Positions 1-60,088 of a stretch of DNA of 64,000 bases are shown one piece after another (the first letter of the stretch is position 1; each line of letters starts with the position of its first letter). Source of the DNA: an uncultured virus (IMG/VR IMGVR_UViG_3300013123_000002) (taxonomy: Duplodnaviria > Heunggongvirae > Uroviricota > Caudoviricetes); IMG/VR virus record IMGVR_UViG_3300013123_000002, one strand, 5' to 3'. The notes below the pieces were generated by a model, which ran no database searches, had not been told where the DNA came from, and saw only the letters and a list, made by a program, of their open reading frames with translations. The translations under genes and the position numbers were made by a program.

Positions 1-3000
1 AGAAGTACCTGACGATCCAGAGCTTCCAGAAGTACCAGAAGTTCCTGAGGAACCTGAAGTACCTGACGATCCAGAGCTTCCAGAAGTACCAGAAGTTCCT
101 GAGGAACCTGAAGTACCTGACGAACCGGATGAACCAGATTTTCCAGAAGAACCGGAACTGCCGGATGACCCCGAAGTACCTGAACTGCCGGAGGAACCGG
201 CCTGGCCAGAGGTTCCAGAGGAACCACTTGAACCACTAGTACCGGAGGAACCGGACGAGCCTGACGTTCCAGAAGAACCGGATGATCCAGCCTGGCCTGA
301 AGTTCCGGAAGAACCTGAAGAACCTGAAGTTCCGGAAGAACCTGAGGAACCTGATTTGCCGGATGAACCTGAACTGCCGGATGAACCTGAAGTGCCGGAC
401 GATCCGCTTGAGCCTGCTGTACCGGAAGAACCGCTTGAACCGCTAGTGCCAGACGAACCGGAAGATCCATCTTTTCCTGATGTTCCAGAGGAACCGCTGG
501 ATCCTGATTTGCCAGATGAACCTGACGAACCTGATGAACCTGAAGAACCAGAGGTACCGCTAGAACCACTTGATCCTGATGTACCGCTTGATCCGCTTGA
601 TCCAGAATTACCTGAAGAACCTGAGGAGCCGCTAGTTCCTGACGAACCGCTTGATCCGCTCGTTCCAGACGAACCGGAAGATCCATCTTTTCCTGATGTT
701 CCGGAAGATCCTGACGATCCGCTTGTTCCGGATGAACCTGAAGAGCCAGAATTACCTGACGAGCCTGAGGAACCTGATGAACCGGCTGTGCCGGACGAGC
801 CAGAGGAACCTGATGTTCCAGATGATCCGCTGGAACCGGATGCTCCACTTGATCCTGAAGAGCCGGACGAACCTGAAGTTCCGGACGAACCTGAAGAACC
901 TGAAGTTCCAGAAGAGCCAGACGATCCTGATTTACCCGAAGAACCTGAGCTGCCAGAGGATCCTGACGTTCCTGAAGAACCGGAAGTTCCACTTGAACCG
1001 GAAGAACCAGCTGCTCCACTTGATCCAGAAGAACCTGAGGTACCTGAACTACCAGATGTTCCGCTTGAACCTGAGGTGCCAGACGATCCTGAGCTACCTG
1101 ATGTTCCTGATGAGCCGCTTGAACCTGAAGTACCCGATGAGCCGCTTGAACCTGAAGTACCCGATGAGCCGCTTGAGCCTGAAGTACCCGATGAGCCGCT
1201 TGAACCTGAAGTACCCGATGAGCCGCTTGAACCTGAAGTACCCGATGAGCCGCTTGAACCTGAAGTACCCGATGAGCCAGATGATCCACTGGAGCCAGAC
1301 GATCCGCTGGAACCGGAAGTTCCACTGGATCCACTGGATCCTGCGGCACCTGAAGAACCTGAAGAACCAGATGTTCCGCTTGAACCGGAAGAACCTGATG
1401 TGCCTGAAGTTCCATCTACTCCGGATAAACCAGAAGTGCCGGATGTTCCAGACGAACCTGTTGCTCCAGAAGAACCGCTAGATCCGCTGGATCCAGACGT
1501 ACCAGAAGAACCTGAAGTTCCTGAGGAACCTGAAGAACCTGCTTTGCCAGACGATCCGCTTGAACCTGATGACCCGCTTGAACCTGAACTACCTGAAGTA
1601 CCGGAAGAACCGGATGATCCTGATGTACCGGAAGAACCTGAGGAACCTGATTTGCCAGAAGAACCTGAACTGCCGGACGATCCGCTTGAACCTGAAGAAC
1701 CTGATGTGCCTGAAGAGCCAGAAGAACCGCTTACTCCTGAAGAACCAGACGATCCACTGGAACCAGAAGAGCCGGATGATCCAGCTGAACCTGATGTACC
1801 AGAAGATCCACTAGAGCCTGAAGAACCTGATGTGCCTGAAGAACCAGACGATCCACTGGAACCAGAAGAGCCTGAAGAACCTGATGTGCCTGAAGAACCA
1901 GAAGATCCACTGGAACCAGAAGAGCCTGAAGAACCTGATGTTCCGCTTGAGCCTGAAGAACCTGATGTGCCTGAAGAACCACTTGCACCTGATGATCCTG
2001 AACTACCTGAAGAGCCTGATGTTCCAGAAGAGCCTGAAGAACCTGATGTACCGGACGATCCAGAAGAACCACTTGCACCTGATGATCCTGAGCTACCTGA
2101 AGAACCTGATGTTCCGGAAGAGCCTGAAGAACCTGATGTACCGGACGATCCAGAAGAACCACTTGCACCTGATGATCCTGAGCTACCGGAAGAACCTGAT
2201 GTTCCGGAAGAGCCGCTTGAACCTGAGGAACCTGAAGTACCGGAAGAACCGCTTGACCCTGATGTTCCAGAGGAACCTGTTGTTCCACTTGAACCTGAGG
2301 AACCTGAAGAACCTGATGTTCCGGAAGAGCCGCTTGAACCTGAGGAACCTGAAGTACCGGAAGAACCGCTTGACCCTGATGTTCCACTTGAACCTGAAGA
2401 ACCTGATGTTCCTGATGAACCTGCTGTTCCACTTGAACCTGAGCTACCTGAAGTACCAGATGAACCCGCTGAACCTGAAGAACCTGATGTTCCGCTTGAA
2501 CCAGATGAGCCAGCTGCTCCACTTGATCCAGAAGAACCAGATGATCCTGAACTACCTGATGAACCAGACGATCCACTGGAACCGGAAGTGCCAGACGAGC
2601 CAGATGATCCGCTTGAACCAGAAGAACCGCTTGATCCTGATGTTCCTGACGATCCACTGGAACCGGCAGTACCTGACGAACCTGAAGAGCCGGCCGTTCC
2701 GCTAGAGCCTGAAGAACCTGAAGTTCCAGACGATCCGCTTGAACCTGATGTTCCGCTTGAGCCAGAAGAACCACTAGAGCCACTGGTTCCTGAAGAGCCG
2801 GAAGACCCAGCTGCTCCGCTTGATCCAGAGGAACCTGACGAACCTGATGTTCCGCTTGAACCGGATGATCCTGACGAGCCAGAAGATCCGCTTGAACCTG
2901 ATGTACCTGAAGAACCAGAAGAACCAGAAGAACCTGAGCTGCCAGAAGCGCCAGATGAACCAGATGATCCACTTGAACCAGAAGTTCCGCTTGAACCTGA

Positions 3001-5487
3001 TGAGCCAGCTGCTCCACTTGATCCAGAAGAACCTGAGGTTCCACTAGAACCTGATGATCCTGATGTTCCGCTTGATCCAGAAGAACCTGAGGTACCTGAT
3101 GAACCAGCTGAGCCGGAAGAACCTGAGGTTCCGCTAGAACCTGATGATCCTGAGGTTCCGCTAGAACCGGCTGATCCTGATGTTCCGCTTGATCCAGAAG
3201 AACCTGATGTGCCGGATGACCCAGCAGAGCCAGAAGAACCACTTGAGCCGGCTTTACCGGACGAGCCTGAAGAACCTGAAGTTCCAGAAGAACCAGATGA
3301 ACCTGAAGAACCTGAACTACCGGAAGATCCGCTTGAACCAGAAGAACCTGAAGTTCCAGAAGAACCTGAGGTTCCGGATGATCCTGAACTACCTGAAGAT
3401 CCGCTTGAACCAGAAGAGCCTGAGGTTCCGGATGAACCAGCAGAACCGGACGATCCACTTGAGCCTGAAGAACCTGAAGTGCCCGAAGACCCAGATGATC
3501 CTGCTTCACCTGACGTGCCGGAAGATCCCGATGAACCTGATGTACCGGAAGAGCCCGATGTTCCACTTGAACCTGAAGAACCTGATGTTCCTGATGAACC
3601 AGAAGAACCTGATGTTCCGCTTGATCCACTTGATCCCGAAGAACCAGACGTGCCGGAAGAACCTGATGTACCAGAAGATCCGCTTGATCCGCTTGATCCT
3701 GAATTACCGGATGACCCTGATGAACCACTTGAACCTGACGTACCTGATGAACCTGAACTTCCAGAGGTTCCAGAAGAACCGCTAGAACCAGATGTTCCGC
3801 TTGAACCAGCGCTTCCTGAAGAACCGGAAGTACCTGATGAACCTGAACTTCCAGATGTTCCAGAAGAACCTGATGATCCGCTTGAACCAGACGAACCTGA
3901 GCTACCTGACGTGCCGGATGACCCAGCAGAGCCAGAAGATCCACTTGATCCTGAACTACCGGACGATCCGCTTGAGCCCGATGAACCTGATGTACCGCTT
4001 GAGCCTGATGTACCGTTGGTTCCTGAAGAACCCGATGTGCCGCTTGAGCCTGATGAACCTGATGTTCCTGATGAACCTGATGTACCGGACGAGCCCGATG
4101 ATCCGCTTGAACCTGAAGAACCTGATGATCCGCTTGATCCGCTTGAACCAGAAGAACCAGAACTACCTGAAGTTCCTGAACTACCTGAGGAACCTGATGT
4201 GCCGCTTGATCCGCTTGAACCAGATGAACCAGAACTACCTGATGTGCCAGAAGATCCGCTTGAACCAGAAGAACCTGAAGTTCCAGAAGAACCAGATGAG
4301 CCAGAAGAACCAGAACTACCTGATGTGCCGCTTGATCCGCTTGAACCAGATGAACCAGAACTACCTGATGTGCCAGAAGAACCTGAAGAACCGGATGAGC
4401 CAGAAGAACCTGAAGAACCTGATGTGCCAGAGGAACCTGAAGAACCGGATGAGCCAGAAGAACCTGAAGAGCCTGATGTGCCAGAGGAACCTGAAGAACC
4501 TGATGTGCCAGATTCTCCTGAAGTACCAGAAGAACCAGATGAGCCAGAAGAACCAGAACTACCTGATGTGCCGCTTGAACCTGATGAACCTGAACTACCT
4601 GATGTGCCAGAAGAACCACTTGAACCTGAGCTGCCAGATTCTCCTGAAGTACCAGAAGAACCAGATGAACCTGAATTTCCTGAAGTTCCTGAACTACCAG
4701 AAGAACCAGAAGAACCAGATGAACCTGAATTTCCTGAAGTTCCTGAAGAACCGGAAGATCCGCTAGTTCCTGACGAACCTGATTCTCCAGACGAACCGGA
4801 CGATCCACTAGTTCCAGATGAACCAGAAGAACCGCTTGACCCAGCTTCTCCTGAAGTACCCGATGACCCTGAAGAACCTGTTTCGCCTGAGGTGCCAGAT
4901 GATCCGGACGAACCGGAAGAACCTGATGATCCAGAAGAACCACTTGATCCTGATTCTCCAGAAGTTCCAGAAGAACCACTTGATCCTGATTCGCCGGAGG
5001 TACCTGAACTTCCGGATTCTCCAGAAGTTCCAGATGAACCAGAAGATCCGCTTGAACCACTAGAACCTGAGGTACCGGAAGAACCGGATGAGCCGGCAGA
5101 TCCACTAGAACCTGACGAACCTGACGAACCACTGGAACCTGAGTCGCCAGAAGTTCCAGACGAACCCGAACTACCAGATTCACCTGATGTACCAGAAGAA
5201 CCGGAACTGCCAGATTCTCCAGAAGTGCCGGATGAACCTGATGAACCAGAAGTACCGCTCGAACCAGAAGAACCTGATTCTCCGGAGGTACCAGAAGATC
5301 CACTGGATCCTGATGAACCTGACGTGCCAGAGGATCCACTAGAGCCAGAAGAGCCGGCTTCGCCTGAGGAACCAGAAGAACCTGACGTACCACTTGAACC
5401 AGAAGAACCTGATTCGCCTGACGTACCGCTTGAACCAGAAGATCCAGAAGTTCCTGATGAACCGGCTGTACCAGAAGAACCGGAACC
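1..5487 (-). repeat. About 610 consecutive 9-nt Gly-X-Y units (mostly GSS/GTS) forming the coding repeat
   Basis: 9-nt periodic 'cc' on the + strand (Pro every third residue in the antisense ORF equals Gly every third on the minus strand), with degenerate synonymous codons. Confidence 0.95.
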
Positions 5488-5766
5488 TCCTCCGCTGTTG
5501 AATATTGACCAGTCTGAAATTAAAGTAGTTGGTGTGCCGGGTTCGTTTATTAAGTTGTAATATGTTCCGCTAGTGCCACTTATTCCTACACCAACGACCA
5601 TGCCCAATCTTCTTCTGTCAGGAGGAATGGCTAACATTTCAGCTTCGCTAGAAACGTTTCGCAAACCTTCTCGACCGTATATAGGATCAGTTACTGCATA
5701 AACATCAGTAGTATCGGTTGGAGTGATTATACCAGTAACTTTAACTGAGCCTGTAATTTCCGACAT
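1..5766 (-). CDS. Giant Gly-X-Y (GSS/GTS) collagen-like or polyglycine repeat protein, putative virion fibre; partial (runs off the left edge, >1922 aa)
   Basis: Translated by hand from ATG at 5766: MSEITGSVKVTGIITPTDTTDVYAVTDPIYGREGLRNVSSEAEMLAIPPDRRRLGMVV..., a ~90-aa N-domain followed by GSSGTAGSSGTSGSSGSSGTSGESG... with Gly every third residue down to position 1 and no stop. Co-oriented with, and 17 nt downstream of, the 5784..6686 gene. Confidence 0.9.
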   Translation of the reverse strand, partial: MSEITGSVKVTGIITPTDTTDVYAVTDPIYGREGLRNVSSEAEMLAIPPDRRRLGMVVGVGISGTSGTYYNLINEPGTPTTLISDWSIFNSGGGSGSSGTAGSSGTSGSSGSSGTSGESGSSGSSGTSGSSGSSGEAGSSGSSGSSGTSGSSGSSGSSGTSGESGSSGSSGTSGSSGSSGTSGESGSSGSSGTSGESGSSGSSGTSGDSGSSGSSGSSGSSGSAGSSGSSGTSGSSGSSGSSGSSGTSGESGSSGTSGESGSSGSSGTSGESGSSGSSGSSGSSGSSGSSGTSGETGSSGSSGTSGEAGSSGSSGSSGTSGSSGSSGESGSSGTSGSSGSSGTSGNSGSSGSSGSSGSSGTSGNSGSSGSSGTSGESGSSGSSGSSGTSGSSGSSGSSGTSGSSGSSGSSGSSGTSGESGTSGSSGSSGTSGSSGSSGSSGSSGSSGTSGSSGSSGSSGSSGSSGTSGSSGSSGSSGSSGTSGSSGSSGSSGSSGTSGSSGSSGSSGTSGSSGSSGSSGSSGTSGSSGSSGTSGSSGSSGSSGSSGSSGSSGSSGSSGSSGTSGSSGTSGSSGSSGTSGSSGTNGTSGSSGTSGSSGSSGSSGSSGSSGSSGSAGSSGTSGSSGSSGSSGSSGSSGTSGSSGSSGTSGSSGSAGSSGTSGSSGSSGTSGSSGSSGTSGSSGSSGSSGNSGSSGSSGSSGTSGSSGTSGSSGSSGSSGTSGSSGSSGTSGSSGSSGTSGSSGTSGSSGSSGTSGEAGSSGSSGTSGSSGSSGSSGSAGSSGTSGSSGSSGSSGSSGSSGTSGSSGTSGSSGSSGSSGSSGSSGSSGSSGTSGSSGSSGKAGSSGSSGSAGSSGTSGSSGSSGTSGSAGSSGTSGSSGSSGTSGSSGSAGSSGTSGSSGSSGTSGSSGSSGTSGSSGSSGAAGSSGSSGTSGSSGSSGSSGASGSSGSSGSSGSSGTSGSSGSSGSSGSSGSSGTSGSSGSSGSSGAAGSSGSSGTSGSSGSSGSSGTSGSSGSSGTSGSSGSSGTAGSSGSSGTAGSSGSSGTSGSSGSSGSSGSSGSSGTSGSSGSSGSSGSSGSSGSSGSSGAAGSSGSSGTSGSSGSAGSSGTSGSSGSSGTAGSSGTSGSSGSSGTSGSSGSSGTSGSSGSSGSSGTSGSSGSSGSSGTTGSSGTSGSSGSSGTSGSSGSSGSSGTSGSSGSSGSSGASGSSGSSGTSGSSGSSGTSGSSGSSGSSGASGSSGSSGTSGSSGSSGTSGSSGSSGSSGASGSSGTSGSSGSSGTSGSSGSSGSSGSSGSSGTSGSSGSSGSSGSSGSSGTSGSSGSSGSSGTSGSAGSSGSSGSSGSSGSSGVSGSSGSSGTSGSSGSSGSSGSSGSSGKSGSSGSSGTSGSSGSSGTSGSSGSSGSSGSSGSSGKAGSSGSSGTSGSSGTSGSSGSSGSSGATGSSGTSGTSGLSGVDGTSGTSGSSGSSGTSGSSGSSGAAGSSGSSGTSGSSGSSGSSGSSGSSGTSGSSGSSGTSGSSGSSGTSGSSGSSGTSGSSGSSGTSGSSGSSGTSGSSGSSGTSGSSGSSGTSGSSGTSGSSGTSGSSGSSGAAGSSGSSGTSGSSGTSGSSGSSGSSGKSGSSGSSGTSGSSGSSGTSGSSGSSGSSGASGSSGSSGTSGSSGSSGTAGSSGSSGSSGNSGSSGSSGTSGSSGSSGTSGKDGSSGSSGTSGSSGSSGTSGSSGSSGNSGSSGSSGTSGSSGSSGTSGSSGSSGSSGSSGKSGSSGSSGTSGKDGSSGSSGTSGSSGSSGTAGSSGSSGTSGSSGSSGSSGKSGSSGSSGTSGSSGSSGTSGQAGSSGSSGTSGSSGSSGTSGSSGSSGTSGQAGSSGSSGTSGSSGSSGSSGKSGSSGSSGTSGSSGTSGTSGSSGSSGTSGSSGTSGTSGSSGSSGTS
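1111..1272. repeat. Near-perfect 27-nt tandem repeat x6 inside the Gly-X-Y gene
   Basis: tgagccgcttgaacctgaagtacccga starts at 1111, 1138, 1165, 1192, 1219 and 1246. Confidence 0.9.
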
Positions 5767-5783
5767 TTATTATCTCTATTCTT

Positions 5784-6686
5784 TTACGATACTGTCATTG
5801 AAACAACGCCAACTATCGGATTTTTTGATCTGAACACGTTATACGTTTCTGTTTCTCCGTATGCATTGGTTATCGAAACCGTAGTGTAAGTTATGCTTCC
5901 GCCACCATCATTGTAGCCATCTGCTGAATCAGCTAGTGCAAACGGCAATCCGTTGTAAGTTATTGAAGCAGGTACACCGTATTCGTTAGGAATCGCTAAG
6001 TACTTATAGTCATTCGCGGCAAACGTATACGTTCCAACTCTTGACGATTTTATCGGATTGTTTAGTAGTGCTTCTACGAAAGCTTCGTTTGGCAACGCAG
6101 TTGATGAACTTGTTCCCCAAAAGACTCTCCAATACCACGATTTACTTTCAGTATCTATGTACGATCCGCCGTTAGTATTTAGCCCCTTTATCTGCCAAGT
6201 ATAAGAACCAGTAGAAGTTCTAACTACTGGACTTCCGTAAGTGTACGGAACTGCGATGCCGTCAGCCGGCTGACCGCTCAGTATGACGACAGATCCACCG
6301 GTCACGTCAGTGACGGTTATTGAGTTCGGCGAAACGTTAGGGTCGTTGGATGAGTTCCAAGTAAACGCTAAAGTAGCAGGCAGAGTTTCTCCAACTTCTA
6401 GAGAGCTAGATCCTGAGATAGAAAATGATGTAAAAGCTGGTACTTGGTATGGATAGAGGAGCATGGTCCACATCTGATCCATAGAAGCATTGTTAAAGGT
6501 AGAACCAGCAGTTATTCCACCCAATGTAGTTGGGACAGGGTCGGTATTCGAATACGTGACGATCCCACCGACATTATCGCTCCAATAAACGTTTCCATCG
6601 ACATCAATGACCAAAAATCGAGTTTTGGTATTGTCCTTAGTAACATTTGAAAGATCTACTTGCTTGATCTGTAGCTTATGAGACAT
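5784..6686 (-). CDS. Putative virion structural protein, beta-rich Ig-like (300 aa)
   Basis: Long ORF with Ser/Thr/Gly-rich beta-strand character, a late promoter motif upstream, and directly upstream of the giant repeat gene. Confidence 0.6.
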   Translation of the reverse strand: MSHKLQIKQVDLSNVTKDNTKTRFLVIDVDGNVYWSDNVGGIVTYSNTDPVPTTLGGITAGSTFNNASMDQMWTMLLYPYQVPAFTSFSISGSSSLEVGETLPATLAFTWNSSNDPNVSPNSITVTDVTGGSVVILSGQPADGIAVPYTYGSPVVRTSTGSYTWQIKGLNTNGGSYIDTESKSWYWRVFWGTSSSTALPNEAFVEALLNNPIKSSRVGTYTFAANDYKYLAIPNEYGVPASITYNGLPFALADSADGYNDGGGSITYTTVSITNAYGETETYNVFRSKNPIVGVVSMTVS

Positions 6687-6744: not shown

Positions 6745-7701
6745 TTACATACGGCGTTCTTTTGCGTACAGAATGGCTTCTACGTACTTGTAGGAAGCAG
6801 TATTTTTATCGAGGTTGGAAAAATCAGCGGTAAATGGATCTTTGTTGATAAAATCCCCTTTGTAAAATAGCTTACCGCCCTCGCTGGACGTGACTCCAGC
6901 ATTGTGCATTATCTTGCACTTTTCGTAATCTGGTATGGGAGAAGTTCCCCAGCTAAAATCGAGTTCCTTGGATATTCTCGGTTGAGCTCCGATCTTTAAG
7001 CCGTTCCACAGAACGGCCCACATGTCAGCACACCATTTTTGGATAGGATTGTACGATTTCAACTGCTCTGCTGTCAGAAACGATCGTTCCATGGTTTCAG
7101 CGTTGTTCATGTGCTTGTACAGAGCCAGTGCATCTTCCTTAACGCTTTTCCAGTAAGAAGAGGTAAGACACTTCATCAGGTGCTGAGCTCCGCCAGAATT
7201 TTTCTGATTCTGTTCAACTAATTCTGGAGATACCTTTGCGATCTGACACATTTCCTTGAAAAGTGTTTCCGACTTGGATTTTATGTACTCGGCTCCAATG
7301 TATGACACAGTATCACTCAAGTACCAGTATAAATCATCGTGCATCGAATCGAAATCAGGAAGCTCTCTAAAGATGATGTCGGAATCGTGGTAAAATACGA
7401 CTTCTCCTCTTAGGTTTGGAAACTTGGAAAAATGCTGTTCGAGTATGTCGGGTCTCAGGATCGGAATGTAGCCAAAATTATCCTTTACCGTTCTATCGTA
7501 CCAGAAAAACCTAACGCACGGGTATTTTTGAGCTAAACTTAGAAGGTCAGGAGATGGATTTCCAAAAATAGCCCAAATCACTTCTATCCAGTTAGGATTT
7601 ATTCCAACTTTCATGAAATTATGAATCATTACCTCAACTTGCCAGTGAAAATACGGCACATCCGGTTGAGCAGATATGAATACGACTTTTTTGGTTAACA
7701 T
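6745..7701 (-). CDS. GT-A glycosyltransferase resembling plant peptidyl-serine O-galactosyltransferase (SGT1/GT96) and HPAT (GT95)
   Basis: DxD motif YHDSDIIFR. Motifs YFHWQ, YIPILRP, SGG and WCADMW occur in the order of recalled SGT1 motifs YFDWQ, YPAINKP, LDADMIIR, VGG and WISEMY. Confidence 0.7.
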   Translation of the reverse strand: MLTKKVVFISAQPDVPYFHWQVEVMIHNFMKVGINPNWIEVIWAIFGNPSPDLLSLAQKYPCVRFFWYDRTVKDNFGYIPILRPDILEQHFSKFPNLRGEVVFYHDSDIIFRELPDFDSMHDDLYWYLSDTVSYIGAEYIKSKSETLFKEMCQIAKVSPELVEQNQKNSGGAQHLMKCLTSSYWKSVKEDALALYKHMNNAETMERSFLTAEQLKSYNPIQKWCADMWAVLWNGLKIGAQPRISKELDFSWGTSPIPDYEKCKIMHNAGVTSSEGGKLFYKGDFINKDPFTADFSNLDKNTASYKYVEAILYAKERRM

Positions 7702-7740: not shown

Positions 7741-9705
7741 TTAGAGGTAAACAGTAACTGTGTGAATTACGGCACCGCCTATGCTAAATTCGTAAGTTCC
7801 TGAAATGGTGGTTATTCCTGCGTCCACGTAAGCTTGCAATGTTCGGTTGAAAACCCAATTTAGCGTTTTCTGAGAGCCTGATATTGCGGTCAAATCGTAC
7901 TCGTTAAGGCTAGGATCTGTGTACTTAACGTCAAACGGGCCAGCCGGAGAACCGAAGAAGGTTACTTGAACTGGCGAATCTACTAAGTAACTTATGTACG
8001 TAGTAGTTGTGGTCGTTGTCGTTGGTTGAGTAGTAGTTGTGGTCGTCGGAGCTGAAGTGGTGGTGGTCGTAGTAGTCGGAGTAACGGTTGTGGTAGTCGT
8101 GGTCGTTGGCACGATAGTCGTGGTAGTCGTGGTAACATCTCCGATAGCAGACAAAGGTATCTCAACTTCGTATTCACAACTAACACCGTAACTAAATGTG
8201 TAAACTCCAATCACAGTAGGAACTTCTGCAAATTCCGCGGCTGAAAGATCGAACGTCCATGGTAAGGTAATGTCTTCGCCCAACAACCCAGTCAGATCGT
8301 GAATTCCTCCAAGCTGATCGATGAACGTAACTGAGTGTGGACCCTCTGGAGTCCCGTAGAACGAAGCTTGAGTAGGGTTCTGCCCATACGGTATTGAGAA
8401 GCTTATCGCGTGAGGAGGACACACTGCCGTAGTTGTGGTCGTAGTGGTGGTAGGAGGTACGGTAGTCACAGGAACTCCCTGGACCACGTAAAATAGGCTG
8501 AACTCTGGGACGTCTGCATAGATCCAACGATTTGCGTAATCTGGAGCGTATGGTCCGGCCGTAACTGTGCTATCCACTAAGACTCCGCTGACCTCTTTAA
8601 ATATTTTTACTAAGTTGAACTCATCCTCAGTTATCGAACCAGGCAAGGTAAACTTTACGATCGCACCGGTTTCGTAAACGAAATTGTGATCTGTTATTGA
8701 GTACGAGTATATGCTATTTTCAAGAAGGTACCCAGAAGGAAGAACGTAACCTGAACTAGACGTTGGGTTTGGAATTCGACAGATCGTGATCGGCCCAATA
8801 TCGCTAGCGGTACCGACGACCGAAATTCCAAAAATGTAAAATTCTAAAGGATCTACTGTCGTTACTTCAGTTGAACACACGTACCCGTTCTGTGAGCAGA
8901 ATGGGTCTGCGCTGAAATAGTGGAGAGTCACCGTGTCAATGTTGTTCAAGGTGTACCCTGCGATAGTTGTGTTAAAGAAAAGTTGGTCAGTCGCGTCAAC
9001 GTCTCTTAGAGCAGAGGCAGTAACACCGCTGTCCTTACTAAAGTAAGCTGGGAGAAGCTTGTGACCGTCTCCCACCAGAGTCTGCAATCCGTTTATGAAG
9101 AGCAGCATGTTGCTGGAGTGAAGAGGCGCAGGGATCAAAAATATTCCTTGTGAGATAGGCGCAGTTCCTGATGGAATAACGTCTGCCACTGCGTGCATTA
9201 TTACTTCTTGCATGCACGGTTGAACTCCGCTAGTTCCACCGGTGCCGGCCAAAAGAGTCCAGCCGGTTGAGTTTAGCCAAACGTACACTCCTTCTACCTT
9301 TCCGTCCTGTGCCTCGATGTACACCATCTCCCCAGGAATTCCGGTCGTTGGGAGCAACCCGTAAACTCGTAATCTCAATCGTAGAGTGTCAGTAACGTCC
9401 TCAGCTATGAAATTCTTAGCTGTAACCGAACCGTTAGGGTACATCTGAGCAACTACTGGGTATTCCCAGTCTATCTGCTCAGCTCCGTAAACTTTTAAGC
9501 CGTGGCGAACCGTTACCCAATTAGCATCCACGTTGCTTATGTCAACTGTTACTTCCGAATCGTTCTGCTCGTAATTTACTGAAGATAGAAATTCCTTTAT
9601 CGCAGAAGTAAGAGTTCGAAAGTTAAAGTTCGAGATCTCAACGATCGACGTAGTGCTGGTGTTGCTTAACGGTTTTACCGAAGTGAGTTTTACCTCTACT
9701 GACAT
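7741..9705 (-). CDS. Putative virion protein with mucin-like poly-Thr linkers and a duplicated C-terminal domain (654 aa)
   Basis: Thr tracts at 8428-8451 and 7999-8133, each followed by a similar ~65-aa module. Confidence 0.6.
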   Translation of the reverse strand: MSVEVKLTSVKPLSNTSTTSIVEISNFNFRTLTSAIKEFLSSVNYEQNDSEVTVDISNVDANWVTVRHGLKVYGAEQIDWEYPVVAQMYPNGSVTAKNFIAEDVTDTLRLRLRVYGLLPTTGIPGEMVYIEAQDGKVEGVYVWLNSTGWTLLAGTGGTSGVQPCMQEVIMHAVADVIPSGTAPISQGIFLIPAPLHSSNMLLFINGLQTLVGDGHKLLPAYFSKDSGVTASALRDVDATDQLFFNTTIAGYTLNNIDTVTLHYFSADPFCSQNGYVCSTEVTTVDPLEFYIFGISVVGTASDIGPITICRIPNPTSSSGYVLPSGYLLENSIYSYSITDHNFVYETGAIVKFTLPGSITEDEFNLVKIFKEVSGVLVDSTVTAGPYAPDYANRWIYADVPEFSLFYVVQGVPVTTVPPTTTTTTTTAVCPPHAISFSIPYGQNPTQASFYGTPEGPHSVTFIDQLGGIHDLTGLLGEDITLPWTFDLSAAEFAEVPTVIGVYTFSYGVSCEYEVEIPLSAIGDVTTTTTTIVPTTTTTTTVTPTTTTTTTSAPTTTTTTQPTTTTTTTTYISYLVDSPVQVTFFGSPAGPFDVKYTDPSLNEYDLTAISGSQKTLNWVFNRTLQAYVDAGITTISGTYEFSIGGAVIHTVTVYL

Positions 9706-13559: not shown

Positions 13560-16502
13560 TTAGTACTTTCTGCGCAAGCTGATCTGGTCGATTTCCATCC
13601 AAACGGTCGGTCCAGTGTTCTTATCATCATCCATGTAGAACGATAGGAATATGAACGGCGTTCCGTTTCCGTTGAACGTTAACGTTCCGGACGTTGCTAT
13701 GCCGCCGGTGTTAGCCGGAAGCGTTCCAACCGTTTCGTACGTACCTGCTGAGAACGTGTGCTTGTTTATGATCAGCTGGTGAGACGACCTGTACTTCAAA
13801 GTAAGCTCGTAATTGTACGAAGTTGCCGGCAGAGAAATGTTGTTAGAACCGATTCCGATTGCACCGCCTCTACCTACTTGACGAACCGCTTTCTGAACAA
13901 ACTTGTTGAAACCTGAAGAGAGTCCATTGATTATGGAATAAGTCTGGTAGAGAGTAGAAGCTGCTTGCCAATAGTCTCCTAAACCGTACGGAGCGTTATC
14001 GTCGTTCCAGTCAGTTGAGAATGGATCGTTAGGCGAATCCGAGTTGACCAACAATTCTGGACCGTATGCTGGAGCGGCCGTTGTGCTAGTCGTGGTAGTC
14101 GTTGCTGGACTAGTAGTAGTGGTCGTTGTAGTAGGTGTTCCAGTAGTCGTTGTCGTAGTCGTCGGAGTCGAGGTTGTGCTAGTTGTTGTCGTGGTAGGAC
14201 CAGCTGTAGTAGTGGTCGTTGTCACGCCAACCGGGTGAGCATCGTTGGCTGTCTGGTGGTCAGTTATGTAAGTTCCACTAACTGTAATTTCTGTTGTGTT
14301 TCCGTTAATTGGATCAGTTGGGTGAACGTAATTCAAAAAATCGTAAACTGATAAGTTTGACTCAATTGCGCATACACCAGGAGTTGAATAACTGTTACGG
14401 TGACCGTACAGAGCTAGTTCAGGTTTCGTTATCGTATCTGTGTAAGTCTTGAATTTTGCGTACGGTGTTCCTGCGCCAATTGGCATCCAATCGTAAGTTG
14501 TGTCTACTATATTTCCGCCTTCTCTCCACGAGTAAAACATTGAAAACTGTCTCAATCCAAAGCCTGTGCTTATCGATGGAGATATTGAAACGTTGAACTT
14601 AGCATTTTCCGAAACGCTAGATACTGGCCAGTGATCGAATATTCCCAAATCTCTTATCGAAATTTGGTGGATTTCGTTTCCGGTTGCATGCTGCATGCCT
14701 ATCCATTCATTGTTCACATCAGACAGAACTCCTATAGTTTCTCCGCTAATGTGCGGTAATTCGTAATACGGCGGAGATTTTCTTCCTGCAGTTTCGACGA
14801 TCGTCCAATTGCTAATCTTAAATTTAATGGTGAACGATACGATCTTTCCGACTTTAACGAACACGCCTGTTTTTTCGGAAATAGTAGGTTGGGTAACTCC
14901 TCCAGTTATGACATTTGCTGCAGGAGTTGGCATGGTTCCAAAGTAGACGTCAGGAGTGAACGTTCCTTCCTGGTATTCGTCTAAAGTGTTCAGGTCTGCG
15001 CTGTTAACGGTAGGTAATGCTCCAGTTGAAACTGGAAAAGGAACTGCACTACTCAACCGCGAACCTTTGATCTTTAAAGCAACGTTCGAATCGCTTGATC
15101 CGATCTTTACCTCCTTTGCTGTATCGCTTGCGTAAATTCCAACGTCGGAATCTGATAGGCCTTTAATACCCTGAGGATTAAGTTCAACTTGTGTTGACGT
15201 TCCTCTTGATAGAATAGCTAACTCATCGAACAGGAAGGTCGTAATTTTGGATTCTGCTCTAAATCCGAACTTGTTTGAAGAATATGGATCAAAACCTAAA
15301 GCTACCTTGTAAGTATCAGTTGGCTCTACTTTCTTGAAGTGTAAACCGTCGATCGCGAGAGCGGTCGTTCCAACTGCTGCTGAACTTCCTTCTAGTGTGC
15401 TGCTAGATAGGGCTAGGTGAAGAACCGAGTTTGAATCTTTAGCAGCGGCAGCTTTCTTATTTATAGTCCATTCGAATTTTGAGTTAAGCGCAGGTTCAGT
15501 TTCATCGTCAAGCGAACTTAGAACGAAATCTGTGAGAATTACGCTTTCGCCAGGAAGATCTGCTGCGTTCAGCCTGTACTTTCTAACTCTTAAGTTCTGG
15601 TACGTTGGGCTTACCACGTACTTTGCATCTGAGTCTGTCGTGTGCAATGCTTCCGCAATATCATCAACCGATCCTAGTTCCAATTGGTGGCGGTAACCGG
15701 TGCTCGAAACGAATTGATCTGGGTGTGTAGCTGCGTTAACCTTATCGTAGAATGAGTACAGAGAGAGTAGAGCTGTGTACGGGAACGCTTCGTTCAGCAA
15801 CGAAACATCTGATCCTAATCTATCGTCTGTTACCTTTACTAAGTAACCGTTTGAGTCAGGTGAACCGTTCGATATTATCTTCTTGGCAGTTGCAGTATCG
15901 AAGTTGAAGATTAGCCCCTGCGAATTCTGAACAGACGCCGTGTTTAATTTCCAGTTAGGTGGGTACGTTTCCCAGTAATCTCCAGGTTTTGAAAGGTACG
16001 AAACTGTTATTCGGTCAATGCCTTCAGAACTGTTGATAGGAATGATTATTCTAGCCGGTGGCGTCTGCGTGTTTACACCAACTCTCCACGGAAACAGTTC
16101 TCCGCCGCTTTCGTTGAGAGCTTCTCTGAAAACTTCGCTGAAATCCGTTATTACTGTCCATACGGTACCTTCGGATTCTTTCTTGTATATTCCATTGTAT
16201 GAAGCTGGCCCAATTTCAACCTTGCCTACGTAGTAATCACCGATTTTTGAATCAGTAGGAGAAGAAGTAGTTAGATCGATAAAGGTCGTTCCTGCTTCTG
16301 ACCAAATTATGGTACCGTCAGCACCGGTGTACCCTCTAGGTCCTCTTGGACCTGGACCACCAGCGTCGCCCTTATCGCCCTTATCGCCTTTATCTCCAAC
16401 ACCAAGGGCTATCAGCTGATTGAAGTTAAAATTTAGCTTATTGGCCAAATCCGCTTGGTTATCAGCTGAGAATATCTCTTTTAGGTTGATGTTGACCGCC
16501 AT
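13560..16502 (-). CDS. Tail-fibre-like protein with a short collagen segment, poly-Thr stalk and C-terminal carbohydrate-binding-like domain (980 aa)
   Basis: GDKGDKGDKGDAGGPGPRGPRG collagen; NTLDEYQEGTFTP fibre motif; Thr tract at 14079-14222; beta-sandwich-like C-terminus. Confidence 0.65.
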   Translation of the reverse strand: MAVNINLKEIFSADNQADLANKLNFNFNQLIALGVGDKGDKGDKGDAGGPGPRGPRGYTGADGTIIWSEAGTTFIDLTTSSPTDSKIGDYYVGKVEIGPASYNGIYKKESEGTVWTVITDFSEVFREALNESGGELFPWRVGVNTQTPPARIIIPINSSEGIDRITVSYLSKPGDYWETYPPNWKLNTASVQNSQGLIFNFDTATAKKIISNGSPDSNGYLVKVTDDRLGSDVSLLNEAFPYTALLSLYSFYDKVNAATHPDQFVSSTGYRHQLELGSVDDIAEALHTTDSDAKYVVSPTYQNLRVRKYRLNAADLPGESVILTDFVLSSLDDETEPALNSKFEWTINKKAAAAKDSNSVLHLALSSSTLEGSSAAVGTTALAIDGLHFKKVEPTDTYKVALGFDPYSSNKFGFRAESKITTFLFDELAILSRGTSTQVELNPQGIKGLSDSDVGIYASDTAKEVKIGSSDSNVALKIKGSRLSSAVPFPVSTGALPTVNSADLNTLDEYQEGTFTPDVYFGTMPTPAANVITGGVTQPTISEKTGVFVKVGKIVSFTIKFKISNWTIVETAGRKSPPYYELPHISGETIGVLSDVNNEWIGMQHATGNEIHQISIRDLGIFDHWPVSSVSENAKFNVSISPSISTGFGLRQFSMFYSWREGGNIVDTTYDWMPIGAGTPYAKFKTYTDTITKPELALYGHRNSYSTPGVCAIESNLSVYDFLNYVHPTDPINGNTTEITVSGTYITDHQTANDAHPVGVTTTTTTAGPTTTTTSTTSTPTTTTTTTGTPTTTTTTTSPATTTTTSTTAAPAYGPELLVNSDSPNDPFSTDWNDDNAPYGLGDYWQAASTLYQTYSIINGLSSGFNKFVQKAVRQVGRGGAIGIGSNNISLPATSYNYELTLKYRSSHQLIINKHTFSAGTYETVGTLPANTGGIATSGTLTFNGNGTPFIFLSFYMDDDKNTGPTVWMEIDQISLRRKY

Positions 16503-35245: not shown

Positions 35246-36871
<1,626 letters not shown>

Positions 36872-45753: not shown

Positions 45754-46859
45754 ACATAGTAATCGACGGTAATGCATTTCTAAACGTAGCTACCAGCATT
45801 GTCAAGAATATTCTCGCAAACGACCGTTCGATCGGAGAGCGGTATTACGTCAACGATTTACTATCGGACGATAAGTTCATGCTAAAGCAGGCAAGCAAAG
45901 ATCAGTTCAAAAAATTCTCACTGAATTACCTAGGAAGCATCTTTGCTCCGTTCAAGGAAAACATCACGTCAGTATTCATAGTTTTCGACTCTAAGAGTTG
46001 GAGAAAACAGTTCATAAAGGATCACGTTGAGGAACACGGCGAGGGAGACTTTGCTTACAAGGGCACTCGCAAGTACGACGATAAGTCATACTTATTCTTC
46101 GATTACTTTCAGGACGAGCTCTTACCATTACTAGTTGAAGAGTACGGTGTAATCACCAGCCGAGTTCCTGGAGCAGAGGGAGATGATCTGATCGCGTACA
46201 TCTGTGAAAACGTCAACGAAGACATCTGCTTGTGGTCAGTTGATAAGGACCTTACTCAATTACTCGAAAGTGAAAAGAGAAAAGTCATTCTCCTGATGCC
46301 TAAGATGATGACCAAGTTCAAGAAAATTTACACAACGGAAACGTTTGAACCGATCGAAAGAAAGGACGTTGATTTGTTCAATTTCGACCTGGAAAGCGTT
46401 GATAATTCGGCAGTTGTGAACGTCCTGACAGACTTGATCACTAAAGATTACCAGCACCACCGAATCAACCCATCAGCTGATATTCTAATGAAGATTCTAG
46501 CTGGCGATAGTTCTGATAACATTCCTAGAGTTCACGAAAAGTTTACTCCTTCCAAAGTCGTTAAAGCTATGGACAAGATCAAGGAAACCGTTGAGTGGAA
46601 CGACGTAAAAAACTTAGTTGATTCAGGTGACCCAGCTTTCATGGATTTCTTGCATAAGGTAATATGTGACACTCTGAAGATAAGTGATCCTGGTGAATCT
46701 CAGACGATCCTGAACAACCTGAACCGAAACCGCAAGCTTATACGATTGAGCACAGCGGTCATGCCTAAGGAATTGGTGGAAGCGATGAAACGTTCGGTTA
46801 ACCTGGACAACAGAAAACGCTTCAACTACTTTAGGTTCAAAAAAAATTACAAGACCTAA
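45750..46859 (+). CDS. rnh: 5'-3' exonuclease / flap endonuclease, T4 RNase H-like
   Basis: VIDGN, FDSKSWRK, YKGTR, EGDDLIA, SVDKDLTQL, GDSSDNIP. Confidence 0.9.
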   Translation: MNIVIDGNAFLNVATSIVKNILANDRSIGERYYVNDLLSDDKFMLKQASKDQFKKFSLNYLGSIFAPFKENITSVFIVFDSKSWRKQFIKDHVEEHGEGDFAYKGTRKYDDKSYLFFDYFQDELLPLLVEEYGVITSRVPGAEGDDLIAYICENVNEDICLWSVDKDLTQLLESEKRKVILLMPKMMTKFKKIYTTETFEPIERKDVDLFNFDLESVDNSAVVNVLTDLITKDYQHHRINPSADILMKILAGDSSDNIPRVHEKFTPSKVVKAMDKIKETVEWNDVKNLVDSGDPAFMDFLHKVICDTLKISDPGESQTILNNLNRNRKLIRLSTAVMPKELVEAMKRSVNLDNRKRFNYFRFKKNYKT

Positions 46860-47182
46860 TGGAAAACGCAGTTGGATTTACCCCTCTATTCGAAAGAGTG
46901 ATGATAAAACCTGATGAGGTTGAAAAAAGAACCGAGACCGGCATCATCCTGCCAGTAGAATCAAGAAAGAGACCCAACACTGGGATAGTGGTCGAAGTGG
47001 GCCACCTCGTTTCCCAAAAGAACTGTCCGATAAAACCCGGAGACCACGTTCTTTACTTGAGGTACGCTGGTTTTGACGTTGAAGTCGACGGCCAGATCTA
47101 TCACCTGGTCATGGCAAACGATTTGGTTGGCATTATAGATAAGTCTATAAACAAATCGTTCGAACTCAAAGATTATGCATAA
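46859..47182 (+). CDS. groES: Co-chaperonin GroES
   Basis: PLFERVMIK, TETGIILP, GIVVEVG, KPGDHVLY..YAG. Confidence 0.92.
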   Translation: MENAVGFTPLFERVMIKPDEVEKRTETGIILPVESRKRPNTGIVVEVGHLVSQKNCPIKPGDHVLYLRYAGFDVEVDGQIYHLVMANDLVGIIDKSINKSFELKDYA

Positions 47183-51619: not shown

Positions 51620-51928
51620 ATGAAAAAGAAACGGTTAACTCGAGATGACATGCTGAACTGGTGGCTCAAAAAGTACCACAAGAAAACGGTTGAGCAAGTT
51701 ATTGCCGAACAACCAAAGGAAGTTCTTCAGAGCCCAGAGTGGTTCAAACTTTACCCGGTCACAAAAGCGCAGCACGATGAGTGGTACGCTTGGGCAATAT
51801 CCGCTCTTTCGAAGGAACGCGGACTTTCTGAAGAATCCGTACGAAAGCTGTTTGCTTTCGATTACTTGAACTGTTCGCCGTATTACGTAGAAGAAAATCA
51901 AGAAAATGATAGTAAGCACCGAATTTAA
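51620..51928 (+). CDS. Hypothetical protein (102 aa)
   Basis: ATG 51620 (MKKKRLTRDD...) fills the gap between dut and the polymerase gene. Confidence 0.6.
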   Translation: MKKKRLTRDDMLNWWLKKYHKKTVEQVIAEQPKEVLQSPEWFKLYPVTKAQHDEWYAWAISALSKERGLSEESVRKLFAFDYLNCSPYYVEENQENDSKHRI

Positions 51929-53312
51929 AGTCGATGAAGCCATGCTAGTCGTCTCCTACTACGATGAGACTGGCAAAGTTGCGTTTATACAGAAACCAAT
52001 ACCAGCAGTAGATCAGTTCAACTGGACGGTTACCGCAAACCCTACCGAATTTAGGAACTGGGACAATCGTTTTTTACGTAAATCTCCTAGCAAGTGGCTC
52101 AGCCGGTTCAGGCTGGAAGAACTCACTCAGTCGAGACTCACGCCGGACGAACTATCCCGTCTCTATTCGGATTACAGCCCAAGAAAGTATTTTCTCGACA
52201 TCGAGGTAAAGCTTGATTCTCAGGATTTTCCTGATCCAGCAAAAGCTCTCATGGAGGTCAACCTCATAACGTTCGTCGGAGAGAACAACATAGTTTACAC
52301 TCTTTCCACTATGGAAAACTTTGACGTTGAGACTCAGCAGAGACTCGTCGATGAAGTTAACCAATACTTTAAGGATGCAGGCATAGAAACCGATTTCACG
52401 CTAAAGTACCTATACTTCGAAAAGGAAGAGGACCTGATGCGAACGTTCTTTCACAAGTTATTACCGAAGATACCGTTCTTGACAGGTTGGAACGTGATCG
52501 GATTTGACTGGATCTACTTGATCAACCGAGCCGATCGATTAAAGATCGAGCCGATGAAGTACATGCCGTGCGAGAAGCTCATAGGAAAAGCAAAGATGCC
52601 GATCCACTTGGGACTCCTCGACTACATGGAAGTTTTCATGAACACCAAACCTTACAAAGTTGTCGAGAACTACAAATTGGAGTACATTGCTGAGCTCGTT
52701 CTTGGTGTCGGAAAGTTGAAACACGAGTACGGTTCGATGCTAGAAGCGCAGTCAGACACTTTCAACTTCGTGAAGTACAACATCATCGACACGTGCCTTG
52801 TCAAGCTGATGGACGATAAACTGCAGCTTCTTGAGGTAGCTTTTGCTATCTCAAAGTTTGCTAGAGTCGATGTTTCAAAGGTTTTCAGCGCGGTATTCAT
52901 CACCGAAACTCTCATGTGCAGGGAATTCTTAGGAAGAGGTAGATACATGTCCAACGACAAGAAGGATCTCGACGAGGAATCGACATACGACGGCGCATAC
53001 GTTATGAAGCCAGTTCCAGGTTTTTACAAGTACATCACCCTTCGAGACTTCAACTCCATGTACCCAAACCTAACCATTCAGTTCAACATGTCGCCGGATG
53101 CTTACATGGGACGAATTTCTAACCGGGACGCTGACGTGCCGAACGATGTCATCTTCACTATGAACGACACTTTATTTACGAACAAGTTCGACTCAGCTGC
53201 ACGAACCATTCTTACGAGGTTGTACAGCGGTCGTGTTGACACAAAGGACAAGATGAAAAAGTTGGAGGCTCAGTTAGAAAGTGAAAAGGCGGAAAAACAA
53301 AAGCTTAATTAA
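51906..53312 (+). CDS. Family B DNA polymerase, N-terminal half (exonuclease plus motif A) of a split gp43
   Basis: ExoI LDIE, ExoII GWNVIGFD, ExoIII YNIID and motif A DFNSMYPN; ends before motifs B and C. Confidence 0.88.
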   Translation: MIVSTEFKVDEAMLVVSYYDETGKVAFIQKPIPAVDQFNWTVTANPTEFRNWDNRFLRKSPSKWLSRFRLEELTQSRLTPDELSRLYSDYSPRKYFLDIEVKLDSQDFPDPAKALMEVNLITFVGENNIVYTLSTMENFDVETQQRLVDEVNQYFKDAGIETDFTLKYLYFEKEEDLMRTFFHKLLPKIPFLTGWNVIGFDWIYLINRADRLKIEPMKYMPCEKLIGKAKMPIHLGLLDYMEVFMNTKPYKVVENYKLEYIAELVLGVGKLKHEYGSMLEAQSDTFNFVKYNIIDTCLVKLMDDKLQLLEVAFAISKFARVDVSKVFSAVFITETLMCREFLGRGRYMSNDKKDLDEESTYDGAYVMKPVPGFYKYITLRDFNSMYPNLTIQFNMSPDAYMGRISNRDADVPNDVIFTMNDTLFTNKFDSAARTILTRLYSGRVDTKDKMKKLEAQLESEKAEKQKLN

Positions 53313-53328
53313 AAAAATCAGAAATTTC

Positions 53329-54042
53329 ATGGCAGGATTCGACATAGAGGAACTAATGTCCATAAAAAATGCTTACCAGGGACAGAGATTCCAGTGGATA
53401 AAACCGCCAGCATCTGAGAGACAGAAACTAGGAACGGTTGTGACGGTCATTGACGTCATACCAGGCCGGCGCATAAACACGGTAAACGGACCCGTCCAAA
53501 CTTACTTGGCGGTTCTGTCAGACCAGTCAAGGATAGAGTCAGAAGCTCTCACAAATAACCTTATGATGCTTCACGAGGACCAACCGCCGTTGACCAGAGA
53601 CGAGGTTCTATCAATTTACGTTGAACCGGAAGTAGACTTGGATGCTGTCAAAAAGGACCTTCCGGCTGACTTGCAATCTCTTTCTACCCTTCAACCTAGC
53701 CAGAAAAACCTTGGAGTTTCAGGACCGTCTGATGTCGGTTTTGCCACAGGAGTAAGCGGCAGTCCTGACCCGCCAGCGCAGCAGAGACAACAAATCCAAA
53801 TCGACACTAAGGGCCTGTTTGGAATGTTCTCGGTAGAAGAGACTGACGTCAACCTTAAGGTATCTGTCCAGCTTCCAGCAAAGAACCTTCTAAAGATGAT
53901 GTTTACTAATTCTCAGGACAAGGAGCAGTTCCTCGACCAGCTGTCCGCCCATATAAATAACAGCATAACGCTAGACGCTATCAAGGCTTCCGTGCGCACG
54001 TTCATGGGCCAGGACAAAAAGAAAAAGGAAGATGACCAATAA
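53329..54042 (+). CDS. Hypothetical protein
   Basis: ATG 53329 (MAGFDIEE...) preferred to the overlapping GTG at 53281. Confidence 0.6.
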   Translation: MAGFDIEELMSIKNAYQGQRFQWIKPPASERQKLGTVVTVIDVIPGRRINTVNGPVQTYLAVLSDQSRIESEALTNNLMMLHEDQPPLTRDEVLSIYVEPEVDLDAVKKDLPADLQSLSTLQPSQKNLGVSGPSDVGFATGVSGSPDPPAQQRQQIQIDTKGLFGMFSVEETDVNLKVSVQLPAKNLLKMMFTNSQDKEQFLDQLSAHINNSITLDAIKASVRTFMGQDKKKKEDDQ

Positions 54043-58483: not shown

Positions 58484-59601
58484 TGAAGCTAACTAACATA
58501 AGATACGTTTACTTAATCGGTGACACTCACTTTGGGATACGCAACAACTCAATTGAGTGGTCTGAGATACAGAAAGACTTTTTCATGAATTTTTTTCTGA
58601 AGAAGATCGATGCTGATTTCGACGAGGCTAGGGACATCTTGGTTTTTGAAGGAGACGTATTTCACTACCGTGAAGCGGTAAACGTCAGAGTCCAGAACGA
58701 AGTTTTGGACCTATTTACTGTTCTAGCTAAAAAGTTCAAACGAGGGGTTTTCACAATAACCGGAAATCACGATACTTACTACAAAGACAAGAGCGAAGTT
58801 CATTCGTTAAGGTCAATCGGAAACTTAGCAGACAACATTCACGTTTTTGAAACGCCTGAGATCCTATCAATAAACAACCAGCACGATTTTTTGATGCTTC
58901 CGTGGGTGGACGATCCAGCCAAAGTGAAGAACATTTTAGTTGATCACCTTAAGTTCTGTCAGTACGTTGTGTGTCACACAGACATCGTCGGTTTCAAGTA
59001 CAACAAGTGGGTAACTATCGAAAAAGGATTAGAAAAAGAATCGTTTGCTGAGTACAAGCGAGTTTACAGCGGGCACATTCACATCAGGCAGGAAAAAGGA
59101 AATATCTTGTACACCGGTTCTCCTTACCAGATGGATAGAGGAGATATCGGAAACACTAGAGGTTTTTACAGGTTGCAAGTTGACACGCCGGAGATACAGG
59201 AACAATTCATACGAAATTCTAAGTCGCCGATCTTTTTAAAGTACGACATTTTCGACATTTTGGACATGCCAAAGTCCGCTATCGTGGAACAATTCTCTAA
59301 TAATTTTGTTGACGTGATGATAAACGTGAAGTTCGCAAACAAATTTCCGGTTCCTCGGTTCTTGGAAGAAATTGCTAATTCAACTCACCGAAGATTGGAA
59401 TTTTTCACGTACACCGATAAGGAAAGGGTCGAAAATACGGCAACCGCCGACGAGTTCGATCCAGACAAAGATTTTAACCTATTCGACATATTCAAAGCAT
59501 ACTTAAAGACCAAGGACTACCCGTTAGATTTTAAGAAAAAGATAGCTTCAAAGTTCGTTGAACTTCACAAAGAAGTGATGGAGGAACAGAACAATGCTTA
59601 A
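58483..59601 (+). CDS. gp47: Mre11/SbcD-like recombination nuclease, T4 gp47-like
   Basis: GDTHFG, GDVF, GNHD and SGHIH metallophosphoesterase motifs. Confidence 0.92.
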   Translation: MKLTNIRYVYLIGDTHFGIRNNSIEWSEIQKDFFMNFFLKKIDADFDEARDILVFEGDVFHYREAVNVRVQNEVLDLFTVLAKKFKRGVFTITGNHDTYYKDKSEVHSLRSIGNLADNIHVFETPEILSINNQHDFLMLPWVDDPAKVKNILVDHLKFCQYVVCHTDIVGFKYNKWVTIEKGLEKESFAEYKRVYSGHIHIRQEKGNILYTGSPYQMDRGDIGNTRGFYRLQVDTPEIQEQFIRNSKSPIFLKYDIFDILDMPKSAIVEQFSNNFVDVMINVKFANKFPVPRFLEEIANSTHRRLEFFTYTDKERVENTATADEFDPDKDFNLFDIFKAYLKTKDYPLDFKKKIASKFVELHKEVMEEQNNA

Positions 59602-60088
59602 CCCATACGTCAGCGATTACGTTTTTGTAAAGAACTTAGGCGGAGCGAATTACGTGGTCCTAGCTAGGACCGACATACCCATGGACGAGATCGTCGAAAT
59701 CTGCCCAGTTTCTATCCTAACTAAGAAAGAGGCAATCATTCTAGGAAAGGTAGTTCCATCGTTTCAGGAAAAGATTTTCACAGATTCCGCTGTTCTGAAA
59801 AAGGAATACGAGCTGCTAGCTGAGCTGAGCGAACTGGAACTAGAAAAACGATTGGACCGAGGCGAGATAACGCCTGACGAATTCAGGAGAATTCTCATGT
59901 CGAAGATGAATCCGACTGCTCTTCTAGAATCAAAGTCTCACGTAGTGATGTTGGGAAACGGAATGCTATACCGAACTAGCGAAATTCCAAACCTTATATG
60001 TGAGTATCATGAGGACAACAAAGTCTGCGTTTTCAAAACAGTTAGGTTCGTTTCTAGAGGGAACGAACTAACTTACTTTAAGCAATAA
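59594..60088 (+). CDS. SET-domain-like protein (degenerate)
   Basis: VLARTDIPMDEIVEICPV ... LGNGMLYRTSEIPN ... FKTVRFVSRGNELT follows the bacterial SET pattern, but NHS is RTS and the terminal Tyr of ELTxxY is missing. Confidence 0.6.
   Translation: MLNPYVSDYVFVKNLGGANYVVLARTDIPMDEIVEICPVSILTKKEAIILGKVVPSFQEKIFTDSAVLKKEYELLAELSELELEKRLDRGEITPDEFRRILMSKMNPTALLESKSHVVMLGNGMLYRTSEIPNLICEYHEDNKVCVFKTVRFVSRGNELTYFKQ

Follow-up and report, generated by a model that had tools for sequence, protein, structure and literature searches.

In silico analysis of a 64,000-nucleotide stretch (the window) of the uncultured virus record IMGVR_UViG_3300013123_000002 revealed, at its left end, a minus-strand gene that probably encodes a trimeric virion fibre with a proline-free stalk of the collagen type; we infer the trimer, the triple helix and the location in the virion from sequence. 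The gene begins with the ATG at position 5766, and its frame stays open up to the window edge at position 1, giving 1922 aa. The window corresponds, in reverse orientation, to the end of record G000, which has 131,445 nt and is listed as 51% complete. No stop occurs in the remaining 119 nt of the contig either, so that the fibre protein comprises at least 1961 aa. An earlier note, made from the letters of the window, had placed the gene in this frame and proposed extending the contig leftwards; the extension brings the repeat to 623 triplets in all, and the contig ends before the C-terminal domain. The fibre gene, its parts and the frame opposite it are:

1..5766, minus strand: fibre gene, starting at ATG 5766, running past the window edge and off the contig 119 nt later, C-terminal domain missing.
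5497..5766, minus strand: head module of about 90 aa, the N-terminal part of the fibre gene, unnamed in Pfam and standing at the front of very diverse fibre-like proteins.
1..5490, minus strand: Gly-[Ser/Thr]-Ser repeat of 610 unbroken triplets (623 to the contig end), without proline and with 63% Ser plus Thr.
2..5560, plus strand: antisense open frame rich in Pro, Asp and Glu (open reading frame, ORF, 356-5560), the repeat's shadow and no gene according to synonymous shuffles.

The strand assignment has been confirmed. Synonymous entropy reaches 1.90 bits in the minus-strand gene frame and at most 1.22 bits in the other five. In 200 synonymous shuffles the plus-strand Pro/Asp/Glu frame contained a mean of 1.0 stop and was stop-free in 25% of cases; its openness is thus explained without any gene, and the plus-strand ORF is the antisense shadow of the fibre gene. 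The same mis-annotation as is suspected for this ORF is found in a cultured phage, Mel-JY01, whose host is given in its record (PP395634.1) as Microcystis. Its Gly-Thr/Ser-Ser gene occupies plus-strand positions 2-3052 (L240), whereas the deposited coding sequences are the antisense frames 1-651 and 739-2298 and, of the real frame, only the last 177 aa. The Mel-JY01 repeat frame is open at the start of the record, and a further open frame, of 771 aa and without annotation, lies at the record end (187.7-190 kb). Such repeat genes are therefore easily mis-called, to the point that an antisense shadow has been deposited as a protein of a cultured phage, and the existence of real particles makes the fibre idea testable.

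The composition of the encoded protein is extreme. A head of 92 aa precedes the repeat, and Gly-X-Y begins at residue 93. Glycine holds the third-residue register in 623 of 623 triplets, and the Pfam Collagen profile matches with 808 bits. Position X is occupied by Ser (427), Thr (150), Glu (14), Ala (11), Lys (9) and other residues (12), position Y by Ser (589, or 95%), Ala (27) and others (7); the commonest triplets are GSS (418) and GTS (142). Proline occurs six times in the head and never in the repeat, charged residues account for 27 of 1869 repeat positions (1.4%), and glycine stands at X in a single triplet and at Y in none. The layout and composition described in the earlier note, namely a head of about 90 aa followed by some 610 uninterrupted triplets, mostly Ser/Thr at X and Y and nearly devoid of proline, were borne out by the count. 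Its view that minor triplets are graded along the length held for GES (triplets 9-109, near the N-terminus), GAA (276-498, central) and GKS/GKD/GQA (427-595, distal) and failed for GNS, also present at triplets 199, 527 and 543, and for GEA, which likewise recurs further on. The difference from known phage collagens was upheld as well: viral collagens in Table 4 of PMC3368898 have 22% Pro and 35% Asp/Glu at X and 38% Lys/Arg at Y, whereas X Pro and Y Lys/Arg are both 0% here. At the rise of 0.286-0.288 nm per residue given in PMC3368898, a triple helix of 623 triplets would span about 0.53-0.54 micrometre, in line with the half micrometre estimated earlier.

Length, in turn, does not set the gene apart, as the earlier note had supposed when it called phage collagens usually far shorter: relatives contain unbroken runs of 904, 877, 754, 735 and 727 triplets. 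By its sequence the fibre gene is a long but non-record member of a widespread class present in many uncultured phages. Complete relatives consist of head, repeat and globular C-terminal domain, with 199 (L048), 185 (L059), 877 (L063) and 904 triplets (L065); they display an anchor-stalk-tip layout of which the window gene's own tip lies beyond the contig. L063 and L065 (from 9989 onward) are two assemblies of one phage, with identical flanks and 877 versus 904 triplets, through natural variation or an assembly difference; many Cys pairs occur in their C-terminal domain of 593 aa, for which Pfam gave no match. Over 69 distinct runs (13,689 triplets) X is Thr in 53% and Ser in 37%, Y is Ser in 72%, Asn in 14% and Asp in 8%, and proline stays below 1%. 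The repeat is, from its distribution among relatives, a movable spacer of variable length: one head of about 40 aa carries 0, 25, 62, 484 or 727 triplets in different phages, a repeat of the Gly-[Ser/Thr]-Ser type is present at 6 of 80 loci of the fibre's own head (the window locus included), and it occurs in 0 of the top 150 head representatives. No description of this class was found in the literature searched, mostly open texts without supplements; new here are the register statistics, a two-gene joint, the separation of two candidate enzymes and the cultured example.

As to the fold of the stalk, only eight short breaks occur in 17,217 triplets of 51 proteins (near-identical copies included), and just one of them is an in-register replacement of glycine, while X, Y and the third codon positions vary across the family. 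A triple helix requires a glycine register kept without breaks while X, Y and the wobble positions may change, and the single replacement in 17,217 triplets makes this fold more likely than either a loose linker or a polyglycine-II bundle; the register is observed, and the triple helix is the fold that it suggests. Several findings weigh against it. Lacking proline and nearly all charge, the repeat (0 Pro, 27 of 1869 residues charged) does not have the composition of the described viral and bacterial collagens of the EPclA and Scl2 type, with stabilising proline at X and/or many charges; single-chain AlphaFold2 (AF2) models have low confidence over the repeat and are uninformative there; the length varies from 0 to 904 triplets at domain boundaries, as a passive spacer would; and slippage by 9 nt alone keeps the glycine register. 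These points suit a virion fibre of three extended, hydrated or glycosylated chains, a bottle-brush tether held only at its globular ends without a stable triple helix. We regard this as unlikely, though the most serious of the alternatives, since a loose linker should accept Gly-to-Ser changes, one transition away from common codons, and because the repeat grades into conventional collagen triplets inside single proteins, as in one relative whose protein joins a 118-triplet Ser-type run to a 95-triplet Pro-containing run. A collagen-type triple-helical stalk thus remains the preferred reading of the register.

The assignment of the protein to the virion draws on genome context and on relatives. 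G000 is, by its predicted genes, a fragment of a T4-like large (jumbo) myophage, with matches to tail sheath, head closure, late sigma factor, gp32, UvsX, DnaB, an SbcCD-like pair and GroEL/GroES; its capsid-like protein is 32-38% identical to those of huge uncultured phages and Lak phages. The fibre gene terminates a minus-strand block that includes the head-closure match, and it has the same orientation as neck/head-closure and tail-sheath genes. The Peptidase_S74 chaperone domain marks trimeric phage fibres; it stands at the end of a 2810-aa protein with the same repeat in G025, a syntenic relative (48 bits against a cut-off of 22). PHROG matches of head relatives are 'virion structural protein' for 3 of 6 members and tail families for 2 of 6, and head relatives also match a protein of a cultured phage that is annotated as a tail fibre and has conventional collagen segments. 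That the product is instead a host-surface, released or intracellular protein, its repeat serving as hydrophilic filler, has a small probability: the missing C-terminus and a head without significant match to a solved virion protein leave room for it and count against a virion fibre, whereas the position among structural genes, the tail and structural annotations of relatives and the S74 chaperone on a protein of the same repeat speak for the particle.

The earlier note's alternative fold was a polyglycine-II bundle; considered here as a bundle of a single chain (PPII) that might serve as a sheet for binding ice or surfaces, it is now disfavoured to the point of being quite improbable. PPII bundles do occur in phage fibres (PMC13243192), and the strict three-residue period and small residues agree with one; such bundles are marked by Gly-Gly-X and loop interruptions. 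Set beside the glycine-rich bundles of snow flea antifreeze protein, S16 gp38 and PE_PGRS, the repeat shows neither a Gly-Gly-X pattern nor loop-like breaks, runs reach 904 triplets without a turn-like interruption, and AF2 built no bundle.

The repeat tract is no assembly artefact as far as the short-read data reach. Its 31-mers are 86% unique and its longest exact internal repeat measures 89 nt. The stretch is present in seven lake-water runs, four of which were compared with the tract (the best-matching run may be the source of the record): contigs of all four have no differing letters and no gaps, and unique pieces across the tract have a read depth like that of the unique flank. No piece spanning the whole repeat was found among the four runs, so the figure of 623 is the count in the existing assembly. 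A second record (L001), perhaps not an independent sample, shows no difference over 11,452 nt and stops inside the repeat, after 131 triplets. The earlier note had named an artefact as one outcome that would overturn it, and the comparison gave no sign of one. That the repeat is such an artefact, or that the plus-strand frame is the gene, is hardly credible: a contig ending in the repeat, the lack of a spanning piece and the antisense frame deposited as a coding sequence in one GenBank record stand against the frame statistics, the shuffles, the identical second record, the agreement of the four runs, the conserved head in frame with the repeat and the complete relatives.

The ~90-aa head is a candidate trimerisation or docking module ('plug'), and its presumed counterpart is encoded directly upstream:

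5784..6686, minus strand: upstream partner gene, 300 aa, whose N-terminal head of about 40 aa carries 0-727 triplets of the same type in relatives.
5787..6134, minus strand: its C-terminal domain of about 115 aa, a candidate 'socket' from gene pairing in relatives.

In 57 of 59 distinct relatives the gene immediately preceding the head module closes with this C-terminal domain, and among new loci found through the upstream domain the head gene comes next in four of four. The pairing suggests a socket-and-plug joint with putative binding between the two, and joints of this kind may be in general use among modular phage fibres.

The proposed mechanism combines these elements. The T4-like jumbo phage would express a homotrimeric virion fibre from a late structural gene. 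Trimer formation would start at the head, which would also attach to the C-terminal domain of the upstream product. The Gly-[Ser/Thr]-Ser tract would form a triple-helical stalk of variable length, at least 0.53 micrometre here, and the missing C-terminal domain, as in complete relatives, would touch the host or surfaces at the tip. Without proline and charge the stalk would be only marginally stable, and a TibC-like enzyme, whose gene would lie in the half of the genome missing from the assembly, may O-glycosylate its Ser and Thr residues and so stabilise it.

Ser/Thr O-glycosylation by such a phage enzyme is the likeliest stabiliser of the stalk, at about an even chance of being correct, and co-occurrence is what points to it. 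The TibC-like enzyme (TIGR04414) has no match in the 51%-complete G000; it exceeds the family cut-off, near repeat genes, in 26 of 43 related records, and Mel-JY01 also encodes the domain (320 bits). Among the 21 records at least 90% complete, which were chosen by other queries, form about eight positive groups by reading and are counted without regard to kinship, 16 have the enzyme: 14 with the Gly-[ST]-[SND] DNA pattern, G004 with a repeat recognised by protein, and G043 without one. Conversely, all 15 repeat-bearing records in this set carry the enzyme, and the pattern occurs in none of the five enzyme-less ones. Two of the related records, G042 and G044, have conventional collagens with Thr at Y. 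Against the glycosylated stalk stands the complete genome G005 (L217, L231, L237), with proline-free Gly-Phe/Val/Tyr/Thr-Ser runs, 93% Ser at Y and no TibC-like gene; another modifying enzyme, or none, may act on these runs. In G025 the enzyme lies two genes past the last repeat gene; in the nearest relative it is found about 10 kb downstream of the cluster. The G000 contig ends before the equivalent region. Phage TibC-like versions are fused to GT4 or methyltransferase domains.

A second glycosyltransferase, near the fibre gene, has to be kept apart from the first:

6745..7701, minus strand: GT-A glycosyltransferase, 318 aa, with a DxD motif and a GT8/GT24-like fold.
7741..9705, minus strand: 654-aa protein with six runs of at least five Thr, a likelier substrate of the 318-aa enzyme.
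13560..16502, minus strand: protein of 980 aa, containing five poly-Thr runs and, as a short segment, 10 triplets of conventional collagen.

Within 10 kb of members of this GT-A family, poly-Thr runs were found at 68 of 72 loci (25 of 27 groups at 80% identity) versus 28 of 78 control loci, and a Gly-X-Ser repeat at 32 of 72 (10 of 27 groups) versus 12 of 78. The family and the repeat occur apart in both directions, which makes the 654-aa and 980-aa proteins the likelier substrates. In the five cultured phages examined the family stands beside Thr-tailed proteins, including capsid and major tail proteins. It is a candidate for virion O-glycosylation of Thr tracts. More widely, members of this unnamed family (2573 relatives; L085-L169) neighbour particle proteins with poly-Thr tails in widely differing phages, among them those of Lactobacillus, Clostridium, Enterococcus and Chryseobacterium. 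An HPAT profile was reached through an atlas cluster at 0.97 with PF23452 on 10% of its members; in Pfam 0 of 66 members match at E<=1. The enzyme may resemble plant SERGT1, a likeness weakly echoed by the PF23452 cluster and unsupported by a Pfam match.

Compared with described systems, the fibre shares with EPclA of Escherichia coli O157 prophages (PMC3368898) and the SPP1 gp12 capsid spike (PMC7602432) a Gly-X-Y stalk between terminal domains and a phage structural gene; these proteins use Pro and charged residues, in contrast to 0% Pro, 1.4% charge, 95% Ser at Y and at least 623 unbroken triplets here. Bucl8 (PMC7682875) is likewise proline-free, with Ser at Y and a variable repeat number. 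For its (Gly-Ala-Ser)n a shallow triple-helix circular dichroism (CD) peak at 25 C, in a (Gly-Ala-Ser)19 construct, and a host-guest melting temperature of 33 C are reported, evidence of a weak triple helix; Bucl8 differs in having 6-38 triplets, in Ala rather than Ser/Thr at X and in being a bacterial outer-membrane protein. The spore glycoproteins BclA/BclA1 (PMC8968730) are hydroxyl-rich microbial collagens too, and BclA glycosylation is reported and proposed to aid hydration and stability; they carry Thr at Y and Pro or Ala at X and lie on spore surfaces, and the sugar of the phage stalk is putative. TibC/Aah (TIGR04414; PMC3835316), the family matched in relatives, has autotransporter adhesins and not collagen repeats as known substrates. 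Phage-encoded glycosyltransferases decorate particle proteins of mycobacteriophages (Freeman et al. 2023, cited in PMC12619734), with glycans at capsid and tail-tube C-termini, unlike the sugars proposed along the collagen-like stalk.

Elsewhere in the window, GroEL-like and GroES-like chaperonins are both encoded (35261-36871 and 46859-47182, plus strand), and a family B DNA polymerase match (51906-54042, plus strand) is confined to a 468-aa ORF; the overlapping ORF after it (253 aa) has no match, and the polymerase may be split. A SET-domain protein (59594-60088, plus strand) lies between the SbcD-like and SbcC-like genes, and a second SET-like ORF is predicted at G000:C1:16954-17361. Outside the window, five minus-strand genes (G000:C1:53102-58329, L200) adjoin the capsid region, two with GT2-like matches below cut-off. 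The window differs from G000 at single positions (27717, 33631 and 48210), all outside the fibre locus.

Taken broadly, it is possible, though on the whole doubtful, that large freshwater phages build half- to near-micrometre fibres of the collagen type solely from Gly-[Ser/Thr]-Ser, in which dense O-glycosylation by TibC-like enzymes of the phages' own would replace stabilisation by proline and hydroxyproline, reach would be tuned by gain and loss of triplets, and subunits would be chained end to end by an undescribed two-gene socket-and-plug joint. If the triple helix is true, a collagen without proline or charge would probe triple-helix stability rules in an extreme case and might serve as a bacterially made, sugar-tuned biomaterial. 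For the phages themselves, a fibre of at least 0.5 micrometre would widen the capture radius in dilute lake water.

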